Of a stretch of DNA of 64,000 nucleotides, positions 11,233-51,923 are shown in pieces. Below the pieces are notes generated by a model. It was not told the DNA's origin. It searched no databases and saw only the letters and a list, made by a program, of their open reading frames with translations. The DNA lies in the NCBI GenBank assembly GCA_012519455.1, contig JAAYQE010000101.1:1636-65635 (forward strand). The letters run 5' to 3'. The translations under genes and the position numbers were made by a program. Source of the DNA: Syntrophomonadaceae bacterium. Lineage in GTDB: Bacteria; Bacillota; Ch66; Ch109. Position 1 is the first letter of the stretch, and each line of letters begins with the position of its first letter.

Positions 11233-12051
11233 ATGAGAAAAGTTGGTCCGGTATTACTGGTGTCTATGGCCCTTACTTTGTCACCAGGCTTGGTAAATGT
11301 AGATAACTCTAAGATTAATAATAGTTGGCTCGCAAATAATTCCTTTTTAACCCAGAAAACAGCTGCAGCCAGTACGGTAACCACTAAAATTAAATATACC
11401 GTTAAAGCTGGAGATTCACTTTGGACCATCGCCCGTCGGAACTCAACTACCGTAGAAAAGATCATGAAGACCAATAAGCTTAGCTCAGATCGGTTGCAAA
11501 TTGGTCAAATACTATATCTCGAAATCAAGACCCAAAAGCAAACCGCTACGCAGACCAAGAGTACGAACCAAGCTAACCAAGCTAATCAAGCTAACCAGGT
11601 TGAAGTAAATAATACTGAAGAAAAAAATCAGGCAGTCGAGTTAGATGAAACAAAGACGCCTAGTCGTGGTGTCGTCAGTGATTTAATTGGTGAATTATTA
11701 TCTACCGCCAAACATTACACCGGCGTACGTTATGTCTATGGTGGCTCTGGACCTAAGGGGTTTGATTGTTCTGGCTTTACGCAGTATGTATTTGCTAAGC
11801 ATGGTATAAAACTGCCGCGCTGCTCGTATGAGCAGGCCAAGATAGGAGCCGAAGTTTCCCGTTCTCAAGCCCGACCAGGCGATTTAGTATTTTTTAATAC
11901 GCAAGGCGGTAGACGAGTTTCCCATGTGGGAATCTACGTAGGTGGAGGAAATTTTATACATGCTAATATTAAAAAGGGAGTAACTATTTCTACGTTAGAT
12001 ACGGGTTATTATCGAGAACGTTTAGTTACCATTCGTCGGGCCATTCGCTAA
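11233..12051 (+). CDS. LysM-domain NlpC/P60 peptidoglycan endopeptidase
   Basis: Signal peptide and one LysM domain (YTVKAGDSLWTIARRNSTTVEKIMKTN). C-terminal NlpC/P60 with catalytic Cys (GFDCSGF) and His (HVGIYVG). The linker contains an NQANQANQANQ repeat. Confidence 0.8.
   Translation: MRKVGPVLLVSMALTLSPGLVNVDNSKINNSWLANNSFLTQKTAAASTVTTKIKYTVKAGDSLWTIARRNSTTVEKIMKTNKLSSDRLQIGQILYLEIKTQKQTATQTKSTNQANQANQANQVEVNNTEEKNQAVELDETKTPSRGVVSDLIGELLSTAKHYTGVRYVYGGSGPKGFDCSGFTQYVFAKHGIKLPRCSYEQAKIGAEVSRSQARPGDLVFFNTQGGRRVSHVGIYVGGGNFIHANIKKGVTISTLDTGYYRERLVTIRRAIR
11568..11598 (+). repeat. tandem 9-nt repeat (CCAAGCTAA x ~3.4) encoding (NQA)n in the hydrolase linker
   Basis: Direct reading. Confidence 0.8.
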
Positions 12052-19171: not shown

Positions 19172-20542
19172 GTGAGAGTGATTTATGTGTTAGGATACGG
19201 GCAACAAACGTATAAGATCTTATCCTATGGTTGTCAGGGCAATCAGCGAGACTCCGAAACTCTAGCCGGTTTGTTGGAAAATTTAGGATATGAACCAGCT
19301 CATGATATTGACGATGCAGATCTTATTATTTTAAATACCTGTTGTGTTCGACATACCGTAGAAAATCGTATCTACGGAAAGTTGGGAGAACTTAAATATT
19401 TAAAACGCAATAACCCCTATTTAGTAATTGGCGTCTGTGGTTGTATGCCTCAACAAAAGGAAGCGGCGGAAAGGTTATATAAACGCGCTCCCCATATTGA
19501 TATTCTCTTTGGTACCCATAACCTTCACCGATTACCGGAATTACTTGAACGAAATCGAGCTACGCGTAGACAGGTTATTGATATTTGGGAGCGGGAAGAA
19601 GATAAAATCGTAGAGCATCTTCCGGTGGTACGAGCCCCTGGTATACGGGCTTATATTAACATTATGTACGGTTGTGACAATTTCTGTAGTTACTGTATTG
19701 TTCCTTATGTCCGTGGTCGAGAGAGAAGTCGACAATCTAAAGAAATCCTGGCGGAAGCACAAGCCGCAATAGATCAGGGTTATAAATAGATAATGCTCTT
19801 AGGTCAAAACGTCAATTCTTATGGAAAAGGTTTAGAAGGAGATCTCGATTTTGCCGATTTACTTACGGAGCTAGACCAAATTAAGGGGATTGAAAGAATT
19901 CGCTATATGACCTCCCATCCTAAAAACTTTACTTCAAAAATCATTAAAGCCATTGCTCAATCCCGCCATGTTTGCGAACATTTTCATTTACCGGTTCAGG
20001 CCGGTGGAAATCGGGTACTAAGATGGATGAATCGAGGATATACCCGAGAGCAGTATATAGATTTAGTTCAAGAAGTACGGGAAACGGTACCAACGTGCAG
20101 TGTAACCACCGATATTATTGTTGGTTTTCCGCAGGAAACCGAAGGCTGTTTTAGTCAAACGCTAGAATTAATGGAATCAATTAGATTTGACGCAGCTTAT
20201 ACTTTTCTTTACTCTCCACGCTCCGGAACACCGGCCTTTAGAATGCCGGATAACGTACCCATAGAAGAAAAAAAGAAACACTTAGGCCAGTTAATGAATG
20301 TGCAAAATAGAATAAGTCTAGAAATAAACCGAGAGTTAATTGGCAAGAGGGTAGAAATTCTCGTAGAAGGGACTAGTAAAACTAACCCCGATCGGCTTAC
20401 TGGACGTACGCGAACGAACAAAATCGTCATCTTTGATGGCCCTTTGGATTTAACCGGCCAATTAGTAGAAGTAGTAATTACTGAGGCCCAAACTTGGAAT
20501 TTGGTGGGAGAACTAAGCACCTCCGGTCCAGAAAAAAATTAA
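19172..20542 (+). CDS. miaB: tRNA-i6A37 methylthiotransferase MiaB, interrupted by a single in-frame TAG (19787-19789)
   Basis: N-terminal MTTase domain, radical SAM domain and TRAM domain are all present and in one frame. The reading is ...AAIDQGYK-TAG-IMLLGQNVNSYG, where the family has GYKEITLLGQNVN, so GAG has become TAG. The likely start is GTG 19178. Confidence 0.75.
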
Positions 20543-24703: not shown

Positions 24704-26398
24704 ATGTTAATCGGCATTGATGTAGGAGGTACTTATACAGATGCAGCCCTGATTCGGGATCGACAGGTGGTTCGTGCGGCGAAAATTCCGACTCGTTCAG
24801 AATTGCTGTCTTCTTTATTAGAAGCACTGGATCAAATTATGGAAGGGGTGGATCCGGCCGCAATCCAACGGGTAGGGTTAAGTACCACCCTAATTACCAA
24901 TTTAATAGCTGAAGATAAAGTTGAACCCGTAGCCCTAGTCGCCATCCCAGGGCCCGGAGCTAATCCATCCGGTTTTACGGTATTTGACGATGCGCATTTG
25001 ATCAAAGGAGCCATTGATTACCGGGGCCGAGAAACCCAGAAGTTACAACCCGCAGAGATAGCGGAGGTAATGAAAAAGATTGAAAAACAAGGTATTCGTA
25101 AAGTAGCGGTAGTAGGTAAATTTTCTGGGCGCAACAATCAGCATGAAAACGAAATTTATAAATACGTGACCCAAAACCACCCGCAATTAGAGGTGGAATT
25201 GGGACATCAAGCAGCGGGAAAACTGAATTTTCCCCGTCGGGCCGCTACGACTCGACTTACGGCGGCAACTCGCCCGGCTTACCGCAATTTCATTAGTCAG
25301 ATAAAAGCGGCGTTACAAGAGCGTAAAATTAAAGCTCAGGTATACATCCTCAAGGCAGACGGCGGAACTTTACCATTAGAAAAAGCAGTAGAGGTACCGG
25401 TAGAAACTATTTTTTCAGGACCGGCAGCCAGTACCATGGGGGTACTAGCCTTAACCCCGGAAGGTCAAACTTCGGTTGTTGTCGATATTGGCGGAACAAC
25501 TACGGATTTGGCGTTAATTTTGTCGGGTCGTCCCCTCTTGGTTTCCAAGGGAGCCCGGGTACAACAACATTTAACGCAAGTAAGGGCCTTTTCGGTACGG
25601 TCCGTAGCCCTAGGGGGCGATAGCACCATTCAGGTAAAGGCAGATAAATTACAGATAGGGCCGCTTCGGGAAGGACCAGCCCGTTGCCTAGGAGGACCGG
25701 TAGCGACGCCAACGGATGCCATGCGCGTTTTAGGTTTAATTGATCTCGGAGATGAAAAACTGGCTCGAGAGGCGATAGCGGAGATAGCTAAACAACTCCC
25801 AACTAATTCCATGGCCCCGGAGGAGGAGCCAGTGATAACGACGGCTCGTAAGATTATTGACGAGGTAGCGGTTATTCTTACCCGAGAAATTAATTATATG
25901 TTTTCAGAATGGGAACAGGAACCGGCCTACCGCATCTGGGAAATGATGCAAAAAGAACGGATACGTCCCCAAAATATAGTAGGGGTGGGCGGATCAGCTC
26001 CTCCTTTGATTCCTCTAATAGCCAAAGATATGAACTGCCAGGGAATTGTACCGGATAATGCCCCCATCGCCAATGCCCTAGGGGCAGCGGTGGCGCGGCC
26101 AACGATGGGGATTACCCTTCGAGTCGATACGGAACAGGCGGTTTATACCCTTGCGGAAGATGGTACTCAGGAGCGTTTAGTGCGTTTAAGCAAATTTCAT
26201 CTAGAAGAAGCCGAAAATCTGGCCCGAGAATTATTAAAAAACCGAGCCGAAGAAATGGGCCTGACAGAGTACAGTCGGGAAGCGGAAGTAACCCATCGGG
26301 AATTATTTAATATGATTCGAGGCTGGAGCCGGGTCGGCCGGTTGATTGATGTCGAGGTACAGATACCGCCCGGATTGATTGCGGAATGGATTAATTAG
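24704..26398 (+). CDS. hydantoinase/oxoprolinase (HyuA-like) family protein
   Basis: MLIGIDVGGTYTDAAL ASKHA-fold N-terminus typical of hydantoinase_A. Confidence 0.65.
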   Translation: MLIGIDVGGTYTDAALIRDRQVVRAAKIPTRSELLSSLLEALDQIMEGVDPAAIQRVGLSTTLITNLIAEDKVEPVALVAIPGPGANPSGFTVFDDAHLIKGAIDYRGRETQKLQPAEIAEVMKKIEKQGIRKVAVVGKFSGRNNQHENEIYKYVTQNHPQLEVELGHQAAGKLNFPRRAATTRLTAATRPAYRNFISQIKAALQERKIKAQVYILKADGGTLPLEKAVEVPVETIFSGPAASTMGVLALTPEGQTSVVVDIGGTTTDLALILSGRPLLVSKGARVQQHLTQVRAFSVRSVALGGDSTIQVKADKLQIGPLREGPARCLGGPVATPTDAMRVLGLIDLGDEKLAREAIAEIAKQLPTNSMAPEEEPVITTARKIIDEVAVILTREINYMFSEWEQEPAYRIWEMMQKERIRPQNIVGVGGSAPPLIPLIAKDMNCQGIVPDNAPIANALGAAVARPTMGITLRVDTEQAVYTLAEDGTQERLVRLSKFHLEEAENLARELLKNRAEEMGLTEYSREAEVTHRELFNMIRGWSRVGRLIDVEVQIPPGLIAEWIN

Positions 26399-26417
26399 TT
26401 TGAAGGAGGGATCACCT

Positions 26418-27824
26418 ATGCAACCAACCTTAAAACCTTGGAACCAGCGGCGCTGGGATACTATGGACCCAAAATCCAGAAGCACAGGCCTGGTGTTTTT
26501 CCCTGCTTTTGACTGGGCCATTTCCCCTACGCATCCGGAAAGAGAAGAGCGACTACTTTATACCAAAGATCAGATTTTTGAAGAAGGATTAATGGATCTA
26601 CCCCAGGTAGTAGAATATAAAGCCGGGTTTGCTACGGAAAAAGATGTAGCCCGGGTTCATTTTTGCGTTCCTGACGTACGGGCCCAGATAACTGATGCCC
26701 ACTTAATCTCGGTCGGAAGTGCCATGGTCCTGGCCGATGCTTTTATGCAGGGCGAAGTAACCAATGCTTTTGCCCTAGTGCGACCACCAGGCCATCATGC
26801 CATGCGGGTCGCACATGGTAACCGTGGTTTTTGTAATATTAACAATGAAGCCATCATGATTGAATATCTAAGGCATAAATACGGGTTACGCCGCCTGGTA
26901 ATCGTAGATACCGATGTACACCATGGCGATGGCACCCAGGAAATTTTTTACCATGACCCAGACGTCTTGTTTATTTCTTTCCATCAAGACGGCCGCACCC
27001 TTTATCCCGGATCGGGTTTTATTCCGGAACTGGGCGGTCCTGGAGCTTATTGTTCCAATATTAATATTCCTTTGCCGCCCGGAACTTCAGATGAAGGAAT
27101 TCATTATGTTTTAGACAACCTGGTCATGCCCATAATACGCGATTTTGATCCGGAAATTGTCGTTAATTCCGCCGGTCAGGACAACCATTTTACTGACCCG
27201 CTGGCCAGTATGCGGTGGACCGCCCACGGCTATGCCTTACTGAACGAAAAACTTCGGCCGGATATAGCGGTGCTGGAAGGTGGCTACGCAATTGAAACTG
27301 CCTTGCCTTACGTAAATACCGGTATTATTCTAGCCATGGCTGGTCTGGACTATTCTCACGTACGTGAACCAGATCTACAACCCGGGGCTCTGAAAATGAG
27401 CCCTTCCACTAAAGAAAGGGTACACGAAGTAGTAAGGGATTTACAAGAAATCTGGGCTAATCGTAAGGAACTAGCCCGCAAGCGAAAAGAAGAAGTGGGA
27501 GCTTACTACGAAAATAATAAACGGATTTATTATGACACCGATCAGATCGAAGAAAGGCAAACGGAAAGAGTTAAAATGTGTGCAGATTGTGCCGGCTATC
27601 TGAAAATCAGCTCTAGTGCGGAAAAAATGTGGAACAATCAGCGGATTATAGGGATATCTATTCCCCTTTACGCTTGCCCTGCCTGCCAGAAAGAGGCGCG
27701 GGATGTATTTTTAAAAGAAAAAGAACAGGCAAAGCCTACGACGGACGTTATCTATCTTCAAGATAAGCCAAACGATACGTTTATTGAGTGGTCCCCCTAC
27801 CGAAAAGAAGAAAGACGGTATTAA
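26418..27824 (+). CDS. histone deacetylase-family (AcuC/HDAC-like) protein with a C-terminal Cys4 ribbon extension
   Basis: DTDVHHGDGTQ catalytic motif. C-terminal CADCAGY...CPACQ. RBS GGAGGG precedes ATG 26418; the track ORF starts at an upstream in-frame ATG at 26379. Confidence 0.75.
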   Translation: MQPTLKPWNQRRWDTMDPKSRSTGLVFFPAFDWAISPTHPEREERLLYTKDQIFEEGLMDLPQVVEYKAGFATEKDVARVHFCVPDVRAQITDAHLISVGSAMVLADAFMQGEVTNAFALVRPPGHHAMRVAHGNRGFCNINNEAIMIEYLRHKYGLRRLVIVDTDVHHGDGTQEIFYHDPDVLFISFHQDGRTLYPGSGFIPELGGPGAYCSNINIPLPPGTSDEGIHYVLDNLVMPIIRDFDPEIVVNSAGQDNHFTDPLASMRWTAHGYALLNEKLRPDIAVLEGGYAIETALPYVNTGIILAMAGLDYSHVREPDLQPGALKMSPSTKERVHEVVRDLQEIWANRKELARKRKEEVGAYYENNKRIYYDTDQIEERQTERVKMCADCAGYLKISSSAEKMWNNQRIIGISIPLYACPACQKEARDVFLKEKEQAKPTTDVIYLQDKPNDTFIEWSPYRKEERRY

Positions 27825-44256: not shown

Positions 44257-45447
44257 TTGACCCATGGATACCATAAATATCCGGCGAAATTTATTCCCCC
44301 TTTAGCGGCTCGCCTAATTGAAAAATATACTCAACCTGATGCGTTAGTGGTCGATCCCTTTATGGGTTCAGGGACAACGCTGGTAGAAGCGATGCTTTAC
44401 GGCCGGCGCACCGTAGGGGTCGATATTAATCCCATAGCCTGGTTAATAACCAAAGCCAAAACCACTCCCATTAATCCGGAAACGCTGCGTTTGGGTTTAA
44501 CTAATTTATATGATGCGTTACCGGTGAATTCCGAGGGTCAACTGATTAGTCCCTTGTTGGGTAAAGTCCCCAAACTAGAACATGAACGGATCGATTATTG
44601 GTTTATTGAACCTAACCGATCTGAATTAGAAGTAGTTTTATTTTTAATTAAACAGGAACCTAACCAATCCGTACGTTATTTTATGCTCTGCGGATTTTCT
44701 AATATCTTGAAAAATTGCAGCCGTTGGCTAATGAGGTCTTCCAAACCTACGGTAGATAAAAACAAAAAGATACCCCCTTTGGTACCTACGCTTAAAAGGC
44801 AGCTTAAATATATGGAAAAAAGGAACGCGCTTTTTTGGGGGAAAATGAAAGGAAAAGCCTATTCAGTAGTAGTACATAGGGGAGACGCCCGAGAGTTACC
44901 AGTTTTAAAAAATAGTATTGACCTCATTGTTACTTCTCCACCTTATGTAACTTCGTATGAATACGCTGATCTACATCAGTTAGGAAATATCATCCTTGGT
45001 TTTACTACTGATTTAAGAGAATTACGTAAAAGCTTTATTGGTTCCATTCAAGCTGAAGAAAATCAAGCAGATCTGCTCAGCCCCTTAGCCCAAGAAACGG
45101 TACAAGCCTTGGAAACGGTAGATAAATCAGAAGGAAGAGGAGCTTTAACTTATTTTCAGTCCATGCAACAGTGCCTGCAGGAAATGAAAAATAAATTACG
45201 ACCGGGTGGACGTACCTGTATCGTAATCGGCAATACTGCCTTAAAGAAGGTACCGATTCCTAATGCCGAAATATTTGTGGAAACCGGATTAGCGCAAGGA
45301 TTACAATTAGAGGAGCTGATAAAAAGAGAAATTCCTTCTAAAATTCTTCCACAAACGAGAGATCCTAAAACGGGAAGGTTTACCTCGGCCGCTAAAGCAA
45401 AAGCTTTAGCTTACCCCGAAGAATATATAATCGTACTAAAAAAATAG
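44257..45447 (+). CDS. DNA methyltransferase (N4-cytosine/N6-adenine family; motif I DPFMGSGTT precedes motif IV TSPPY)
   Basis: FxGxG AdoMet motif at the N-terminus and an SPPY catalytic motif ~190 aa later, so motif I precedes motif IV. The S-P-P-Y form is most typical of N4-cytosine MTases. No SD sequence; the start (TTG 44257) is uncertain and the frame is open from 44143. The region is AT-rich relative to its neighbours. Confidence 0.8.
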   Translation: MTHGYHKYPAKFIPPLAARLIEKYTQPDALVVDPFMGSGTTLVEAMLYGRRTVGVDINPIAWLITKAKTTPINPETLRLGLTNLYDALPVNSEGQLISPLLGKVPKLEHERIDYWFIEPNRSELEVVLFLIKQEPNQSVRYFMLCGFSNILKNCSRWLMRSSKPTVDKNKKIPPLVPTLKRQLKYMEKRNALFWGKMKGKAYSVVVHRGDARELPVLKNSIDLIVTSPPYVTSYEYADLHQLGNIILGFTTDLRELRKSFIGSIQAEENQADLLSPLAQETVQALETVDKSEGRGALTYFQSMQQCLQEMKNKLRPGGRTCIVIGNTALKKVPIPNAEIFVETGLAQGLQLEELIKREIPSKILPQTRDPKTGRFTSAAKAKALAYPEEYIIVLKK

Positions 45448-45457
45448 AGGGAATGGC

Positions 45458-46060
45458 ATGTCTCAACTTATAGATTTAGGTATAGTTCAAGGGCGAAAGG
45501 GAGTAACACTGAAAATATTTGAAGAAGTCTGTCCGGATATTTTTGCCCTACCACAATTAAAACCCAGTCAGTTTGTGACTAAGTTATGGTCGGAATATCA
45601 GGCAAGTCCATTTACTAAAAGTAATAATATAAATGGGACTATGTTCGAATATATTTTAGCTGCGATATTAATACGACATAATCTACGTCCTTTTCATCGA
45701 GGCGTTAAGATGGCTTTTATTCCAAATATTGAACATGATTTAATATTAATTACTACTCAAAAACAAGTGATTTCCTTAAGTGCTAAAACTAGTCTGAGAG
45801 AAAGATATAAACAGGCAGATCTGGAAGCGATGGCCTTAAAAAACGTCCATCGTAAGTCCCTATGTTATTTATTGACTTTAGAAACCCATGAAGCACAGGT
45901 AGCTAAACAAAAGATTAAAGCAGGAGATGCTTTAGCTCTTGATGATGTTATATTGGTGAATGATTCGGAATTTGATCATTTAATTGATGATCTTTCAAAA
46001 TTTTCATTTATAGAGAACCACCAGACTAGTATTGTTTTACAGTCACGTATGGTTAAATAA
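45458..46060 (+). CDS. hypothetical protein, candidate cognate restriction endonuclease
   Basis: 200-aa ORF 10 nt downstream of the MTase, with RBS GAGGGA. AT-rich. Weak PD-(D/E)xK-like string IEHDLILITTQKQ...SAK. The assignment is by context only. Confidence 0.3.
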   Translation: MSQLIDLGIVQGRKGVTLKIFEEVCPDIFALPQLKPSQFVTKLWSEYQASPFTKSNNINGTMFEYILAAILIRHNLRPFHRGVKMAFIPNIEHDLILITTQKQVISLSAKTSLRERYKQADLEAMALKNVHRKSLCYLLTLETHEAQVAKQKIKAGDALALDDVILVNDSEFDHLIDDLSKFSFIENHQTSIVLQSRMVK

Positions 46061-46357
46061 AATTCAATATATACCTAAGAGCATCATTAACTTATTTCGT
46101 AACTATTTCGGACATGCTTTGTAACAACTGGATCTACTTTAGCGTAGAATAAGCTACACCAATAATATATTTGTGGGATGGTGCCAAGCATGGATATTCG
46201 CTACCGTTATCCGAAAAAGCCGTATGTGAAAAACAGAAAAGCAGTCGATTTTGCTTTTGCCCATTCCCAACTGGGTTACCCGGAAGCCCGCGAACTTCCG
46301 CCCGTAGGGGCTGTACCGTTTCTTTATCCCTGGAAAAAGTCCGGGGAGATGAATAAG

Positions 46358-46557
46358 ATGAATAATCGGAGTTCGGACCCGGTGGATAATATCCGGATCA
46401 TCGAAGCCATAATTAAAGAATTAGATTCCTTAATTGGCCTGGACAAGGTGAAAAAGTTAGTAAAAGAAATTCAAGCTTTTGTGGAAATTCAAGGTAAACG
46501 GGCCGTGGAACAACTAGCCACGGAGCCTTTGGTCTTGCATATGATCTTTAAAGGTAA
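46358..46557 (+). CDS. spoVK: spoVK 5' segment (N-terminal 66 codons, ending ...LVLHMIFKG), interrupted by an intervening element
   Basis: IGLDKVKKLVKEIQAFVEIQGKRAVEQLATEPLVLHMIFKG matches the SpoVK region immediately N-terminal to Walker A. The frame then runs into unrelated sequence (KPLMTPVKKMIS*) beyond the 12-bp core CTTTAAAGGTAA (46546-46557). Confidence 0.85.
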
Positions 46558-46617
46558 ACCCTTAATGACTCCGGTTAAAAAAATGATAAGTTAGAATGAT
46601 AAGTTAGATGGGTTGAA

Positions 46618-48093
46618 TTAATCACAACGAAGTAAACTTTCCGCCAAGCGGTAGTCAACAATTTTTTTATCCCGGATAACGATACTGTTAAAAAGAGTTC
46701 TTAATGCCTCACGAATTAAGGGCAAATCGCCGTTCCTCCACAGCCAGAGCAATTGCTTCGCTTCTTCTTGCATCAAGCCTTCCACCTCCGCCGGCAGCCC
46801 TTGCCCCACACGATTTCTTTCGGCCGCCGCCAAGCTTGCCCGCTCCCGATCGATTCTTTTCCGAGCCAGTTCAAGATCTTTTTCCGTAATTAGATGGTTT
46901 TCAAAAGCCTGAATTTGACGTTGAAATTTCCGGTCAAGGGCCATTTTCCGGCGCTTAAAAGCTTCTTCTTGAATCCGCATCGCCATCGTTATTTCTTCCA
47001 TGGGTACCGCACAAAGCCCCTCGGCTAACTTTTCTAAAACTTTAAAGGCCTGTGCTTCTGCGTCTTCGATAAAAATATAGTTAAAGCGACAACGGCCTTT
47101 TTTTTGATATTCCTGGCATACAAAAATTTTCCGTATTTTATGCGGACCTTTACTGCTATAAGGACGGCTAATCATTTTCGCCCCACAATAAGCACAAATT
47201 AAAAGGCCGGATAAACGGTGTTTAGCTTGCCTCTGGCCACCCTTGGGCAAGGACCGGGTAATACGAGCCTGTATCGCATTCCATTGTTCCTCAGTTAAAA
47301 TCGGAGGGTGGGCTTGTTCTTTAACTACCCATTTTTCCGGATCCCGCCAACAGATCTGGCCCCTTTTATCGAGGTAGCGCCGATTCCAAATTAGTTTGCC
47401 GGTATAAAGTTCGTTGGTTAGCATCTGCCGGATGGTGGAGGAACTCCAAAACGCTCCCTTACGAGTGCATACCTTAGATTCATTGAGCCATTGGGCAATA
47501 GCTCGGTATCCATACCCCAAAAGAAACATATCCGCTGCTTTCGATACCCAGGCCGCCTCTTCAGCTACGATCTGCAGGTTTTGATGCTGATCAAATTGAT
47601 AACCAAAAGGAGGTACGGCTAGATAGCGTTTCTTTTTATCCGCTAATTCGAACATCCCGGATTTTACGCGGGCCGCAATCATCGATCTTTCAAACTCGGC
47701 AAAAGCCGCAAGGATTTGCAGCACCATGCGGCCCATAGGCGTAGAAGTATCAAAATTTTGCGAAGCACAGATATAAGTCGTGTTATGTTTTTCACATAGT
47801 TCAACAAATTGGAGCATATCTAAAAGATTGCGGGACAAACGGTCTACAGCTATGGTTAATACCACGGATACTTTTCCCTGTTTAATGAGTCGAAGAAGCT
47901 GCTTCAGGGCGGGACGATTCATGTTTTTAGCCGATTCACCTTCATCCGCAAAAATAGAAAGGTTATTCCAACCTTGGAAACTAGCGTAATCCTTGAGCCG
48001 ATTAATTTGATTTTCCACGGAATAGCCTTCCCGGGCTTGTTCTTCGGTGGACACCCGAACGTATAAAGCCACTATTTTTTCCTGCTTTTCCAT
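46618..48093 (-). CDS. large serine recombinase (SpoIVCA/CisA/TnpX-like site-specific recombinase)
   Basis: N-terminal resolvase domain with catalytic Ser in ALYVRVSTEEQ. Recombinase domain. Zinc-ribbon CAYCGAKM...C and C-terminal coiled coil. 491 aa, intact. Its 3' end is 60 nt from the left junction. Confidence 0.9.
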   Translation of the reverse strand: MEKQEKIVALYVRVSTEEQAREGYSVENQINRLKDYASFQGWNNLSIFADEGESAKNMNRPALKQLLRLIKQGKVSVVLTIAVDRLSRNLLDMLQFVELCEKHNTTYICASQNFDTSTPMGRMVLQILAAFAEFERSMIAARVKSGMFELADKKKRYLAVPPFGYQFDQHQNLQIVAEEAAWVSKAADMFLLGYGYRAIAQWLNESKVCTRKGAFWSSSTIRQMLTNELYTGKLIWNRRYLDKRGQICWRDPEKWVVKEQAHPPILTEEQWNAIQARITRSLPKGGQRQAKHRLSGLLICAYCGAKMISRPYSSKGPHKIRKIFVCQEYQKKGRCRFNYIFIEDAEAQAFKVLEKLAEGLCAVPMEEITMAMRIQEEAFKRRKMALDRKFQRQIQAFENHLITEKDLELARKRIDRERASLAAAERNRVGQGLPAEVEGLMQEEAKQLLWLWRNGDLPLIREALRTLFNSIVIRDKKIVDYRLAESLLRCD

Positions 48094-48112
48094 AACCTAC
48101 ACCTCATACACT

Positions 48113-48127
48113 TTTCCCTAAGGGAAA
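48113..48127. promoter_or_regulatory. 15-bp palindrome TTTCCCTAAGGGAAA in the recombinase 5' region
   Basis: Perfect inverted repeat ~25 nt upstream of the recombinase RBS, between the divergent recombinase and the small ORF. Confidence 0.3.
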
Positions 48128-48229
48128 CTTCACAACCTTCAAGCGTTTAATCACCACGTTTTCCCATGAACCGTTGACAAGCAGCAGCCGCATAGGATGA
48201 ACCAGGGGGATGAACTAGGAGGTGGTCCT

Positions 48230-48397
48230 ATGGAGAAAATTAGCCTTAAAATAGAAGATCAATGGGTTCCGCTTGATACGCTGCCCCCTGAGTTACAAAA
48301 GCAGGTACAACAAAAAATCGCGGAAGTACTAGAAAAGGCGATCCGCGGTCAAATACAGGTGTTTTTAGCCCAAAAACTAAAACCCGATGACCTATAA
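48230..48397 (+). CDS. small hypothetical protein (55 aa), divergent from the recombinase
   Basis: RBS GGAGGTGG 5 nt before ATG 48230. Helical, charged. Candidate accessory or directionality factor, by position only. Confidence 0.3.
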   Translation: MEKISLKIEDQWVPLDTLPPELQKQVQQKIAEVLEKAIRGQIQVFLAQKLKPDDL

Positions 48398-48446
48398 ATA
48401 TATCTATGAAAGAAAATTTGAAGTATTGCCGAAGCAACCCAGATTT

Positions 48447-48490
48447 TATAGAATGGTATAAGATGAGATATAGAATGGTATAAGATGAGA
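48447..48490 (+). repeat. perfect tandem duplication of a 22-bp unit, TATAGAATGGTATAAGATGAGA x2, directly upstream of the YjcQ-like ORF
   Basis: Direct reading. Each unit carries TGGTATAAG (extended -10-like). Confidence 0.8.
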
Positions 48491-48492
48491 TC

Positions 48493-48798
48493 ATGAAAAG
48501 AGAGGAGAAAGTAACCGTGACGATTAATGCCCAGGAAAAAGAGATTTACAAATGTGGTATTTTACATGATTTACTGATTGGTAATTATCCCGATCCTCTT
48601 GATTACGTTAATGAAAACGGCCTCAGTTATCGCCAATTTATCAACTTAATTGCGGCCATGCAAAAAGAGGGGCTGATCCAAGGCGTTGTATTCCAAGACT
48701 CGGACCCTAATACGCCCCCACTATGTGTTCTAGAAAAGGCGGAAGTAACCGATAAAGGCATCGACTATTTAGAGAAATTCATGGAAGAATTGAATTAA
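48493..48798 (+). CDS. YjcQ-like small protein (phage/skin-element associated family)
   Basis: 101-aa protein whose length and pattern resemble the YjcQ family. Confidence 0.45.
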   Translation: MKREEKVTVTINAQEKEIYKCGILHDLLIGNYPDPLDYVNENGLSYRQFINLIAAMQKEGLIQGVVFQDSDPNTPPLCVLEKAEVTDKGIDYLEKFMEELN

Positions 48799-48820
48799 CT
48801 TTTACCGTTGAATTAACCTT

Positions 48821-49984
48821 TTACTTTGACCTTTCCGCAAAAAATCGCTCGAGTCGATCTAGTCCTTCTTTAATCTTCTCCAAAGAATTAGCGTAAGAAA
48901 TACGTAAGTATCCTTCGCAACTGCTTCCAAAGTCAATCCCGGGCGTAACTGCTACTTTGGCCTTTTCTAGGATTTCGAAAGCTAGGGCATAGGAGTCGCT
49001 AGAATATTGTTTAACCTTAGCTAGGGCATAAAAAGCACCGGTGGGGTCCACCAAGGTAGCAATTCCCATCTTTTTTAACCTCTGTAAAAGATAGCGGCGT
49101 CGCTGGTCATAAATATTAACCATTTCCGCGACCTCTTTTTCACAATCTTTTAAAGCGGTAATGGCCGCGGTTTGCACAAAAGAAGGGGCACAGATAAAAA
49201 GATTTTGTTGGATGATTTGCATGGTCCGGATATACTCCCGAGGCGCGATTACATAACCTAAGCGCCATCCGGTCATGGCATAAAGCTTAGAGAAGCCATT
49301 AATCACAAAAGCCCGGTCCGTAAACTCCAGTACCGAATGCTCTTCGCCTTCATAAATTAGGCCGTTATAAATTTCATCCGAAATAATCGGCTGATCTAAA
49401 GCCGCTAAAGCCTGAAAATCACGGGCCGAATAAACGGTCCCTGTTGGATTAGCCGGGGAGTTGACCATAATGGCCCGGGTCAAAGGACTAATCCTTTTTT
49501 TTATCTCTTCTGGCCGATATTTAAACCCATCTTCCTCTGTTACCTTCACGAAAACCGGTTTTCCTTCGAGATAACGGATAAAGTTAGGGTAGCAGGCATA
49601 ATAAGGATCTGAAAGAATAATCTCCTCGCCCTGCTCCAGTAAAACCGAAAAAGCCAGCAGCATCCCAGGGGAGGTCCCCGAAGTGACAATAATTTGTTCG
49701 GGCGATATATGCACCCGATACTTTTTAAAGTAGTGCTCCGCAATGGCTTCTCGCAAAGCTATTTTACCTAAACTGTGCGTATAGTGTGTATCGCCATTCA
49801 TCAGCGCGTGGGCCGCAGCTTCCTTGATGGGCTGAGGCGTAGGAAAATCCGGTTCCCCAATTTCTAGGTGAATGATGTGCTCTCCCTGAGCCTCAAGTTG
49901 TTGGGCTTTTTCTAACACTTCCATCACAATAAAAGGCGAAATTTGCTGGGTACGGCCAGGTAAGCTAAGCGTATTTGACTTCAT
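48821..49984 (-). CDS. PLP-dependent aminotransferase class I/II (aspartate/aromatic aminotransferase-like)
   Basis: SKLYAMTGWRLGY PLP-lysine motif. 387-aa fold-type I. Confidence 0.85.
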   Translation of the reverse strand: MKSNTLSLPGRTQQISPFIVMEVLEKAQQLEAQGEHIIHLEIGEPDFPTPQPIKEAAAHALMNGDTHYTHSLGKIALREAIAEHYFKKYRVHISPEQIIVTSGTSPGMLLAFSVLLEQGEEIILSDPYYACYPNFIRYLEGKPVFVKVTEEDGFKYRPEEIKKRISPLTRAIMVNSPANPTGTVYSARDFQALAALDQPIISDEIYNGLIYEGEEHSVLEFTDRAFVINGFSKLYAMTGWRLGYVIAPREYIRTMQIIQQNLFICAPSFVQTAAITALKDCEKEVAEMVNIYDQRRRYLLQRLKKMGIATLVDPTGAFYALAKVKQYSSDSYALAFEILEKAKVAVTPGIDFGSSCEGYLRISYANSLEKIKEGLDRLERFFAERSK

Positions 49985-50123
49985 GCTATTTCCTTTCTAT
50001 ATAAAATATTGGCTTAAAGTATTGGCTTCCTATTTTTTTATGGGGGCGTAGTATCTTTTCTAAAAGTCATTATTTCGACATTGGCGGATTATTCCCTTCC
50101 AGGCTAAAGATTTTCCCCGGTAG

Positions 50124-50793
50124 CTTTAAAGGTAATCCGGGAACAGGCAAAACAACCGTTGCGCGTTTAGTGGGAAAACTATTCAAAGAAATAGGGGTGT
50201 TACAAAAGGGGCACCTAGTTGAAGTCGAACGCGCCGATCTAGTTGGCGAATACATCGGACACACCGCACAAAAAACACGGGACCAGGTAAAAAGGGCCCT
50301 TGGGGGTATCTTGTTTATAGATGAAGCCTATTCCTTAGCGCGAGGAGGAGAACGCGATTTTGGTAAGGAAAGCATCGATGCCTTAGTCAAATCCATGGAA
50401 GATCATAAGGAAAATTTAATTTTGATTTTAGCCGGATACCGTGATGAGATGGAAAGGTTTATTCAGAGTAATCCCGGGGTACGCTCACGTTTCCCCATCC
50501 AAATCGATTTTCCCGATTACACCGTGCATGAATTAATGCAGATCGCGGACCTCATGTTAAGCCAGCGTCAATACTGTCTTTCATCGGAAGCCCGGCTTGA
50601 ATTACAACGGATATTAGAAAAGCAGGTGCGGGAGGGAATGGGGCATAACGGTAATGCCCGTCTGGTGCGCAATCTAATTGAACGCGGGATCCGGCGCCAA
50701 GCGGTCCGCTTAATCAGTCAAAAGGAAATAAAGCGGGAGGACCTAGTTTTAATCCGGCGGCAAGACCTGGAACCCCATGCCGAAGACAGCTAA
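50124..50793 (+). CDS. spoVK: spoVK 3' segment (from the Walker A motif NPGTGKTT to the C-terminus)
   Basis: FKGNPGTGKTTVARLVGKLFKEIGVLQKGHLVEVERADLVGEYIGHTAQKTRD..., Walker B ILFIDEAY and a sensor region are all collinear with B. subtilis SpoVK. No start codon or RBS of its own at the junction. Confidence 0.85.
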
Positions 50794-50975
50794 GCAGTTG
50801 CAAAATATGTAACCATAGGCATCACCTCCCCTCGAAGGGAAGTGACCAACCGCCAAACGGCAACTCCTGTATTATGTTAGCATATTATCCAGGGGTTGTG
50901 AGCTCGGTTGACATTAATCTTGTATACATGATAAGGTTTAAGGTAATAAAAATCTAATTAGAAAGTTATACCTTC

Positions 50976-51923
50976 ATGAATTTACCATCACCATATCTAC
51001 AATTGGTTATTGCCACGATCATATGGGGTGGAAATTTTGTCGTCGGACGCGCCATAGCTGATCAATTACCGCCTTTTAGTTTGACGTTTTTCCGCTGGTG
51101 TACGGCTTTGCTTATTTTTTGGCCCTTTTGTCGCAAACAAATTAAAGCGGAAAAACCGATTATCCTAGCTAACTGGTGGTTTATTGCTGTAATGGCCCTT
51201 ACTGGCATCACCGGCTTTAATACTTTATTGTATTATGCGCTACGTTATACTACCTCCATCAACGCTTCTCTGGTTTTCGCGACTTCACCGATTATTATTA
51301 GTATCTTAGCGGCTGTTATTTTAAAGGAAAGACTGACCATGTACCATTTTTTGGGGGTAGGCCTAACTTTAGGCGGCGTCTTATATATTATTTCTAACGG
51401 TTCCTTGAGCACTCTAATTAATTTTACTTTTAATTTAGGGGACCTAATGGTCATTATCGCCGTAATCTCCTGGGGCTTCTATTCAATTGCCGTTCGAAGC
51501 GCCAGGCAGTTACCGCTTTTTAGCTCTTTTGCTTATTCCATTATCTTTAGTCTACCTTTAATCACTCCTCTTTTCCTCTGGGAAATGAACTGGAGCGATA
51601 AAGTAATAGTTTGGTCGTGGGCTTCGGTAGCTGCTATCCTTTATGTAGGAATTATGGCCTCCATTGTGGCTTTCATTTTATGGAATGCAGCGGTTTCCCG
51701 ATTAGGGCCGGCCCGATCTAGTATATTTTTAAACTTAGTCCCGGTATTTGCCTCTGTTTTTGCCATTTTATTTAATAATGAAACTTTAGCGCCCTATCAA
51801 TTAATCGGTGGATTAGTGGTCATCATAGGCGTTTATATCTCTACGGATACTAAAAAAATGAAGCGTATCCGAAGAAGATGGTCCGGATTTAGGAAGGGAG
51901 GGGACGCTCTACGGAAGAATTAA
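50976..51923 (+). CDS. EamA/DMT-family transporter
   Basis: 10-TM protein with two EamA repeats. Confidence 0.8.
   Translation: MNLPSPYLQLVIATIIWGGNFVVGRAIADQLPPFSLTFFRWCTALLIFWPFCRKQIKAEKPIILANWWFIAVMALTGITGFNTLLYYALRYTTSINASLVFATSPIIISILAAVILKERLTMYHFLGVGLTLGGVLYIISNGSLSTLINFTFNLGDLMVIIAVISWGFYSIAVRSARQLPLFSSFAYSIIFSLPLITPLFLWEMNWSDKVIVWSWASVAAILYVGIMASIVAFILWNAAVSRLGPARSSIFLNLVPVFASVFAILFNNETLAPYQLIGGLVVIIGVYISTDTKKMKRIRRRWSGFRKGGDALRKN

Follow-up and report, generated by a model that had tools for sequence, protein, structure and literature searches.

Introduction

Several sporulation genes are known to be interrupted by DNA elements that are later excised, among them skin, SPβ, gin and the skin element of C. 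difficile (PMC4191935, PMC5595907, PMC5025042). Here we analyze a comparable locus in a metagenome-assembled genome (MAG) labelled Syntrophomonadaceae bacterium (GenBank assembly GCA_012519455.1, contig JAAYQE010000101.1, positions 1,636 to 65,635 of the forward strand). The stretch of 64,000 nucleotides is referred to as the window, and all positions are counted from its first letter. In the window the sporulation gene spoVK is split by a 3,578-bp element that encodes a large serine recombinase (LSR). We consider it quite likely that this is a reduced phage-derived element whose LSR targets the P-loop DNA of spoVK, and that excision in the mother cell during sporulation restores the gene.

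The skin elements of B. subtilis and C. difficile also lie inside the coding sequence of a mother-cell gene, sigK, and their excision by an LSR (SpoIVCA or CD1231) together with a recombination directionality factor (RDF) restores the open reading frame (ORF). The element of B. subtilis measures 48 kb and that of C. difficile about 14.6 kb. Skin elements of different hosts share the recombination unit only (bioRxiv 10.1101/2022.02.25.481979; PMC5025042). The likeness to skin had been noticed in a first reading of the window's letters, hereafter the original prediction, and it stands: an LSR-bearing element lies between direct repeats in a mother-cell gene, whose ORF is restored by excision in silico. 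The differences concern the target (spoVK instead of sigK), the size of 3.6 kb, the RDF candidate, which comes from an unannotated family, and developmental control, which is suggested here by analogy.

The gin element in gerE of B. cereus ATCC10987, with the LSR GirC and the 42-residue RDF GirX, is likewise compact and non-prophage (PMC5595907). Its excision by an LSR requires a very small, motif-less partner; the function of GirX is established both in vivo and in vitro, and the 55-residue protein described below is a candidate. Moreover, gin carries three recombinase genes, targets gerE and has a 9-bp core repeat, in contrast to one recombinase gene, spoVK and 12 bp in the present case. SPβ in spsM (SprA/SprB) and vfbin and vrin in spoVFB and spoVR follow the same integrase-plus-RDF logic, by which the mother-cell gene is restored and the spore germ line retains the element (PMC4191935, PMC5499854). 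Their targets and integrase lineages are different, and SPβ is a functional phage, whereas the window element has lost all recognizable phage functions except a YjcQ-like relic.

Integration of SPβ-like prophages into spoVK itself has been documented in Bacillus, and reconstitution of the gene during sporulation was left open for these prophages (bioRxiv 10.1101/2021.11.22.469490). The prophages vB_BsuS-Goe14 and those of B. subtilis BS155 and B. vallismortis DSM 11031 use a serine integrase and occupy the same gene. They are about 130 kb long and active or recently active, and no SprB-like RDF has been found in them. [quoted passage not shown] A search of 50,697 GenBank phage records gave this LSR a best match of only 32% identity, so its lineage differs from that of the SPβ-like spoVK prophages. 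Because size, attP position, core and LSR identity all differ, membership in the Goe14-type group was rejected. Literature searches turned up neither a compact spoVK element nor the present LSR clade or small ORF; the element is a new family within the known class of sporulation-gene intervening elements.

Interruption and in silico restoration of spoVK

SpoVK is a mother-cell AAA+ chaperone that activates MurG for cortex synthesis in B. subtilis (PMC11513918), where its expression in the mother cell has been described (PMC517825). The features of the split gene are as follows.

46178 to 46557, plus strand: spoVK 5' fragment, starting at 46178 or at the Met codon at 46190 and ending ...LVLHMIFKG plus the AA of an Asn codon
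46546 to 46557, plus strand: attL core CTTTAAAGGTAA, presumed crossover at AA 46556-46557
50124 to 50135, plus strand: attR core CTTTAAAGGTAA, presumed crossover at AA 50134-50135
50134 to 50793, plus strand: spoVK 3' fragment, from NPGTGKTT... to the stop codon at 50791-50793
Rejoined spoVK: attB junction CATATGATCTTTAAAGGTAATCCGGGAACAGG

The reading frames agree with the original prediction that spoVK is split inside its Walker A codons, the 5' part ending at ...LHMIFKG and the 3' part restarting at NPGTGKTT. The frame upstream of the first core copy reads ...EPLVLHMIFKG in the ORF list, and that downstream of the second copy reads NPGTGKTTVARL... In the integrated state, the 5' frame continues past the core to a stop at 46592-46594, and the first in-frame start of the 3' fragment is a GTG at 50170, past Walker A. 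Strand β1 (LHMIFKG) is thereby separated from the Walker A loop (NPGTGKT), so that neither fragment can make an ATPase. A match to TIGR02881 on residues 79-128 supports the 5' fragment.

Joining 46358-46557 to 50136-50793 in silico yields a 285-residue ORF without a stop codon, so that a precise join across one core does restore the frame as predicted. The product matches PF00004 (AAA), PF17866 (AAA_lid_6) and TIGR02881 (stage V sporulation protein K; 420.5 bits, cutoff 422.95). The start proposed at 46358 had to be revised. The frame is open from 46178, and the additional N-terminus (MDIRYRY...RELPPVGAV...PW) is kept in the intact homologues P0121, P0122 and P0127; the 5' fragment therefore spans 46178 or 46190 to 46557, and restored SpoVK has 345 residues and regains the GNPGTGKT motif on in silico joining. 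A database record exists for the 134-residue 5' fragment that starts at 46190, and exact look-up of the 138-residue version returned no record. The restored protein is 85% identical to proteins labelled stage V sporulation protein K by the Joint Genome Institute (JGI). As judged from its sequence, the target of insertion is the mother-cell sporulation gene spoVK, with mother-cell expression known from B. subtilis only.

The same split allele in independent assemblies

The source of the window is a MAG, and two independent assemblies break at 46687/46688 in the LSR gene, which would be compatible with an insert created by a chimeric join in assembly or binning. The attR junction recurs in contigs from other samples (L168 and L172-L176, 98.2-99.8% identity) and the attL junction in a further sample (L260, 99.87%); samples and assemblers are independent, and identities range overall from 98.2 to 99.9%. 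The same architecture is found in the closed genome CP062796. Because the junctions are reproduced in independent contigs, an assembly artefact is ruled out, and we give that explanation a negligible probability. The contig breaks cluster inside the 3' end of the LSR gene, where L260 ends at 46688, L172 starts at 46687 and L173 starts at 46731. A reading of the breaks at 46687/46688 as coexisting excised forms was rejected, since they lie away from the att core and do not fit k-mer geometry; they probably reflect local strain microdiversity.

The split allele is present in at least five other metagenome assemblies, several of them labelled biogas fermenter, and the LSR, the small ORF and the aminotransferase are intact wherever these contigs cover them. 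The strain occurs in the biogas metagenomes SRR3184675, SRR3184648 and SRR30200692 and in the runs behind ERZ27280797, ERZ27280805 and ERZ773357. No intact SpoVK more than 85% identical was found among 5.8 billion clustered proteins, so the split allele looks fixed in the sampled populations. A comparison with uninterrupted relatives had been suggested, and such a gene was found: a relative with 85% identical SpoVK (L169-L171) encodes an uninterrupted ...FKGNPGSGKT... in the same hfq...spoVK-hflX-Met_gamma_lyase-DUF456-lexA context.

A variant 98% identical to the window (L168:1376-2146, P0125) has a one-base change upstream of attR that makes an in-frame ATG. The resulting 256-residue ORF reads from the element through attR with Walker A intact. 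Without the native strand β1 and N-terminus, the product is probably non-functional.

A family of spoVK-splitting elements

About 65 relatives of the LSR were found at 45-67% identity, almost all in MAGs or metagenomes. Their loci were searched with restored SpoVK. In at least five further lineages of Bacillota, relatives of 46-67% identity were found to interrupt spoVK at the codons also hit in the window, both high-scoring segment pairs meeting at query residues 65-68, and the elements span 2.0 to 9.9 kb.

L002, closed genome CP062796 of Ca. Fermentithermobacillus carboniphilus: 9.26 kb
L163/L164, MAG from a biogas-fermenter metagenome: 9.95 kb
L005, uncultured Clostridia MAG: 3.77 kb
L006/L083, Bacillota MAG: 2.92 kb
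L082, metagenome contig: 1,998 bp
L003/L166/L167, Bacillota MAG and JGI metagenome contigs: attL only seen

In silico excision restores the spoVK ORF in five other elements too. The cargo is wholly different from one element to the next and comprises an ABC transporter, HSP20, YitT and GGDEF proteins in L163/L164, a 561-residue ORF in L005 and an aminotransferase in the window; L005 and L082 share the remnant of one cargo gene. The elements of 2.0-3.8 kb contain no recognizable replication, packaging, repressor or transfer genes. Other members of the clade are phage-like or mobile (L161/L162, L180, L263 and the short contig L001) and do not lie in spoVK within their contigs; the phage-like contigs carry XkdX, lysin, cI-like repressor, restriction-modification and ParA-like genes.

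In L166 (9400-11520), L167 and L003, the spoVK 5' fragment, attL and the recombinase are present, and the other flank consists of AI-2E transporter, alaS, ireB, ruvX and mltG genes. No attR or spoVK 3' part was found within 10 kb. Either a very large intervening segment with housekeeping genes is present, or a chromosomal rearrangement has taken place at the att site.

Sister recombinases that are 54-57% identical (L165:11489-11749, L004 with the same sequence, and L261 at about 11480-11600) have no spoVK flank. They abut the N-terminal part of a PRK06851-family P-loop protein, truncated after ...(V/I)LKGG. The break is again at the Walker A codons, and the DNA is similar (CTGAAAGGTGG compared with TTTAAAGGTAA). 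By these target sequences, the LSR clade may be specialized for P-loop-coding DNA.

Selection on the split gene and inheritance of the element

Selection was assessed with the pair L002 and L163, whose related hosts are both interrupted and whose elements are collinear with 95-97% identity. Their spoVK genes differ by 5 nonsynonymous and 12 synonymous substitutions, with a ratio of nonsynonymous to synonymous rates (dN/dS) of 0.12 and a synonymous rate (dS) of 0.070 (binomial p = 4e-5 against neutrality). For the LSR, dN/dS is 0.215 and dS is 0.080. That the dS of spoVK equals that of the LSR implies that the element has been inherited in place. The spoVK genes of L005 and L082 are 78% identical with a dN/dS of about 0.05, dS being saturated. 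No stop codon or frameshift was found in the spoVK halves of any lineage. Between the window and L168 and L172-L176 the differences are too few for a within-species dN/dS.

As the gene is split in both lineages, its strong constraint indicates that it is restored where needed. The pattern of substitutions implies that split spoVK is still used, which is evolutionary evidence beyond analogy and the main support of this kind for functional excision. Based on these comparisons, the element is retained in the germ line and vertically inherited together with a functional host gene, on a small sample of substitutions.

Constraint of this kind bears on two other explanations. In the first, the insertion would be dead: the host would have lost sporulation or its need for SpoVK, leaving a frozen relic in a pseudogene. 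Many members of the Syntrophomonadaceae are not known to sporulate. No excised form was seen in any assembly, the guanine-plus-cytosine (G+C) content of the insert equals that of the host and suggests long residence, and miaB in the window has an in-frame TAG that points to some gene decay or to a MAG error. Against such a relic, the LSR, the small ORF and the pair of att sites remain intact after an apparently long residence, as do the two spoVK halves, and constraint is seen in the sister lineages on the LSR (dN/dS 0.215) as well as on split spoVK (0.12 and about 0.05). A degraded recombinase, which the original prediction had named as the mark of a dead insertion, was not seen among the relatives, and an intact LSR is present in the window and in no fewer than four further samples. 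The window also contains a SleB-like spore cortex-lytic gene, which together with the hfq...spoVK-hflX synteny points to a spore-forming host. We therefore hold a dead insertion to be very unlikely. The host of L002 is predicted to sporulate (PMC10215811).

In the second explanation, the element would be a mobile parasite without a developmental role, a satellite-like remnant that excises on stress or with a helper phage; spoVK would be a convenient landing site, and its interruption would be tolerated or costly. Elements of a phage-like or mobile kind (L161/L162, L180, L261 and L263), equipped with cI-like repressors, lysins and XkdX, do house close LSR relatives, and their small ORF has early or regulatory genes around it, as one would expect of a lytic-cycle RDF. 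Conserved coding sites are often targeted by LSR phages, and no sporulation promoter was recognized. This explanation is difficult to reconcile with elements of 2.0-3.8 kb that lack recognizable replication, packaging, repressor and transfer genes, or with an allele that looks fixed in all sampled populations. In addition, the equal dS and collinearity of L002 and L163 indicate vertical inheritance and not repeated transfer, and purifying selection on split spoVK requires restoration in the cells that need SpoVK. A parasite devoid of a developmental role is, in our view, unlikely.

Recombination sites and the crossover position

The direct core copies at 46546-46557 and 50124-50135 were confirmed as the sole copies of the 12-mer CTTTAAAGGTAA in the window on either strand. 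In shuffled sequences, 0.05 copies are expected, and two or more copies were obtained in none of 100 shuffles. The reconstructed attP consists of the following parts.

46558 to 46617: element-side arm of attL, equal to the right arm of attP (ACCCTTAATGACTCCGGTT...)
50095 to 50123: element-side arm of attR, equal to the left arm of attP (...TTTTCCCCGGTAG)
Circular form: attP junction CCCCGGTAGCTTTAAAGGTAAACCCTTAATGACTCCGG

attL and attR were aligned in six fully bounded elements. The stretch that is identical between the two sites varies by element, being CTTTAAAGGTAA in the window and AAAGG plus AATCC around a mismatch in L002, and the stretches of the six elements overlap solely at the AA of the Asn codon (GGN-AA-TCC). 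Around this AA, 17-19 of 30 positions are symmetric in the reconstructed attP sites and 8-13 of 30 in attB. The window attP has 18 of 30, and its CCGG...CCGG arms are positioned like those in the native attP sites of L001 and L180. Native attP sites in L001, L161, L180 and L263 are near-perfect inverted repeats centred on the same AA; an example is TTTTTTCACCGG-N28-CCGGTGAAAAAA with the centre GGCAAGCC, and the window has CCCCGG-N28-CCGGTT in the same geometry. Since attL and attR overlap only at AA and this is the dyad centre of attP, we infer AA as the crossover dinucleotide (46556-46557 and 50134-50135). Judged by sequence, the att sites look functional; they are short, with an attP more symmetric than attB, as is typical of the LSR family.

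A 13-bp tandem repeat (ATGATAAGTTAGA x2, 46583-46608) lies between the attL arm and the LSR stop codon, and the equivalent position of L005 has a different direct repeat (ATTGGACTGATA x2). Accessory sites are not known to be required by LSR att sites.

Gene content of the element

Counting one core, the insert comprises 3,578 bp and four ORFs.

46618 to 48093, minus strand: intact LSR of 491 residues, assigned by domain matches
48094 to 48229: divergent intergenic region between the LSR and the small ORF, presumed from its sequence to be a control region
48230 to 48397, plus strand: 55-residue ORF, candidate RDF; the alternative start at 48197 gives 66 residues
48447 to 48490, plus strand: 22-bp perfect tandem duplication (TATAGAATGGTATAAGATGAGA x2) just 5' of the YjcQ-like ORF
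48493 to 48798, plus strand: YjcQ-like ORF of 101 residues, a phage-type relic (PF09639 2.8e-7, phrog_3675 2e-5)
48821 to 49984, minus strand: class I/II pyridoxal phosphate-dependent aminotransferase of 387 residues, cargo (PF00155 5e-62)

A 3.6-kb element with an intact recombinase is thus what had been predicted; the 55-residue ORF, the YjcQ-like ORF and the aminotransferase are additions to that picture. The G+C content is 43.7% in the insert and 43.8% in the window, so composition gives no sign of recent arrival. The aminotransferase matches NF006514 at 3e-120, below the cutoff of that model. Among the elements compared it is confined to that of the window species, being intact in L168 and L172-L176. 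A sigma-70-like promoter match at 48426-48454 runs into the duplication TATAGAATGGTATAAGATGAGA x2, which may serve as an operator.

No Rfam family was detected across 45500-51500 at E values up to 0.1. Scans for sigma-70 promoters and terminators, and a pattern scan for sigma-E and sigma-K promoters 5' of the small ORF in eight elements, revealed nothing conserved. The intergenic region of the window holds CATACACT and AC-N18-CATAACCTA, which are at chance level and absent from the other elements; for CATAnnnTA, 0.33 matches are expected by chance in the scanned sequence.

The recombinase

The 491-residue enzyme is encoded on the minus strand with its stop codon 61 bp from the attL core, so that an intact recombinase has its 3' end at attL, as foreseen. 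It matches PF00239 (6.3e-40, residues 8-153), PF07508 (2.5e-27), PF13408 (1.2e-8) and, among the PHROG families, phrog_95 'integrase' (9e-118). Conservation of the YVRVSTEEQ motif, which includes S15, reaches 90% or more over 41 relatives, in which the zinc-ribbon residues C300, C303, C326 and C335 are invariant. By its catalytic, recombinase and zinc-ribbon domains, the enzyme is a member of the LSR family. It is 100% identical to a protein of the NCBI MAG 'Syntrophomonadaceae bacterium', and an exact look-up of the sequence returned no record.

The label SpoIVCA/CisA-type in the original prediction holds as far as the large serine recombinase family is concerned and finds no support as a statement of SpoIVCA orthology. 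The enzyme scores below the cutoffs of the XisF equivalog model (190.4 bits, cutoff 375) and the CcrB model (201.5, cutoff 900), matches no SpoIVCA-specific model and is only 35% identical to a protein named 'putative DNA recombinase CisA'. A link to skin SpoIVCA through more distant relatives was also sought and not found: in the first 167 loci, a test with a SigK sequence detected no sigK fragments beside recombinases of 30-38% identity. Because these distant enzymes have no sigK flanks, no link to skin SpoIVCA is established.

The recombinase ORFs at L005:6897-8351 and L082:5634-7100 are open through the catalytic N-terminus and have no ATG, GTG or TTG start. Both show a strong ribosome-binding site followed 7-8 nt on by ATA-GAA, where the window has ATG-GAA. 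Judging from its conservation, the ATA may be a non-canonical start that keeps the recombinase low.

A candidate directionality factor

A profile was built from the small ORFs that diverge from the LSR in the window, L005, L082 and L006. In a search of all six-frame ORFs of 167 loci, it identified the small ORF in L002, L163/L164, L081 and the phage-like L161/L162 (E values 5e-7 to 6e-5). Further matches were obtained in the viral contigs L180 (5.5e-17) and L181 (4e-6), and in L261 (1.2e-22) and L263 (3.5e-27). In all, 11 distinct elements contain the ORF together with the LSR, and these two are the only ORFs still intact in the 1,998-bp element L082. The position of the small ORF varies: it lies beside the LSR, at the far end by attR, or several kb off among early genes. 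A varying position of the RDF gene relative to the LSR has been reported (PMC12286644).

The family has 12 database members, all unnamed, and searches of Pfam, PHROG and NCBIfam returned no family. An AlphaFold2 model of the 55-residue protein displays a β-hairpin and a long helix, with a predicted local distance difference test (pLDDT) score of 87.6. Co-occurrence with the LSR makes this ORF the best RDF candidate, and on that ground it is likely an RDF.

Proposed mechanism and implications

In the mechanism that we propose, the LSR would recognize the P-loop DNA of spoVK (...TTT AAA GGT AA/T CCG GG...), and the ancestral element would have integrated at the AA of the Asn codon by recombination of attP with attB. 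The element would then have kept the LSR, the divergently transcribed 55-residue protein as RDF candidate and both att sites. The LSR and the RDF together are predicted to recombine attL with attR, such that the element leaves as a circle and spoVK is rejoined exactly. Excision is anticipated in the mother cell during sporulation, while the forespore would keep the element and pass it on vertically. SpoVK acts in the mother cell, which is terminal, so that excision in this compartment is the economical reading; we infer timing and compartment by analogy with the known systems. Excision in sporulation is also indirectly supported by selection on spoVK, the co-divergence of element and host, the symmetry of attP and the genes that the minimal elements retain.

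Several observations weigh against this mechanism. No attB or attP excision junction was present in any contig, including in an exact search of viral contigs, and no conserved sigma-E or sigma-K promoter precedes the small ORF or the LSR. The RDF assignment has co-occurrence as its only basis; known RDFs have no common testable motif (PMC12286644), and a Foldseek search of the PDB with the 55-residue model gave nothing below E = 5. Restored SpoVK, in its 285-residue form, scores 2.5 bits below the TIGR02881 cutoff. The selection test on L002 and L163 comprises only 17 substitutions, and the uncultured 'Syntrophomonadaceae' host may not be a spore-former. The original prediction had noted that a second spoVK copy would reduce the significance of the split; there is none within the window, and one may exist elsewhere in the genome.

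If spoVK is restored by excision as proposed, the gene, split at its Walker A codons, would be added to the few mother-cell genes controlled by DNA excision, and the phenomenon would extend to uncultured, largely thermophilic and anaerobic Bacillota, including the class DTU015. The series from phage-like contigs to a 2-kb cassette would illustrate how a prophage turns into a developmental element of its host. A broader proposal is that a clade of LSRs directed at P-loop DNA, most of whose members cut spoVK at FKG/NPGTGKT, has, in several Bacillota classes, been whittled from phages down to vertically inherited 2-4-kb cassettes of LSR and 55-residue protein that act as a developmental switch of SpoVK, the small proteins being a new RDF family. 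This generalization is tentative, and we rate its chances at somewhat less than even.

For annotation, a split spoVK will show up as two fragments labelled 'AAA family ATPase', with the risk that spoVK is wrongly reported as missing from the genome. About ten natural sets of LSR, attB, attP and candidate RDF with a defined crossover dinucleotide are also available as testable orthogonal tools for genome engineering.

Genomic context

A DNA methyltransferase and a 200-residue ORF without a family lie directly 5' of spoVK (44257-46060), possibly as a restriction-modification pair, and an EamA transporter is found between spoVK and hflX (50976-51923). These three genes are absent at the matching positions of L169, which characterizes the neighbourhood as an insertion hotspot.

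The miaB gene (19172-20542) consists of two ORFs in the same frame, separated by an in-frame TAG at 19787-19789 (GYK*IMLLGQNVN). The TAG occupies the position of what is presumably a conserved Glu of MiaB proteins, and it could be a nonsense mutation, a consensus error of the MAG or a recoded codon. The genes mutS and mutL are usually adjacent. In the window two ORFs lie between them (24704-27824); one matches no family, and the other shows a weak match to the alpha subunits of caprolactamase and acetophenone carboxylase.

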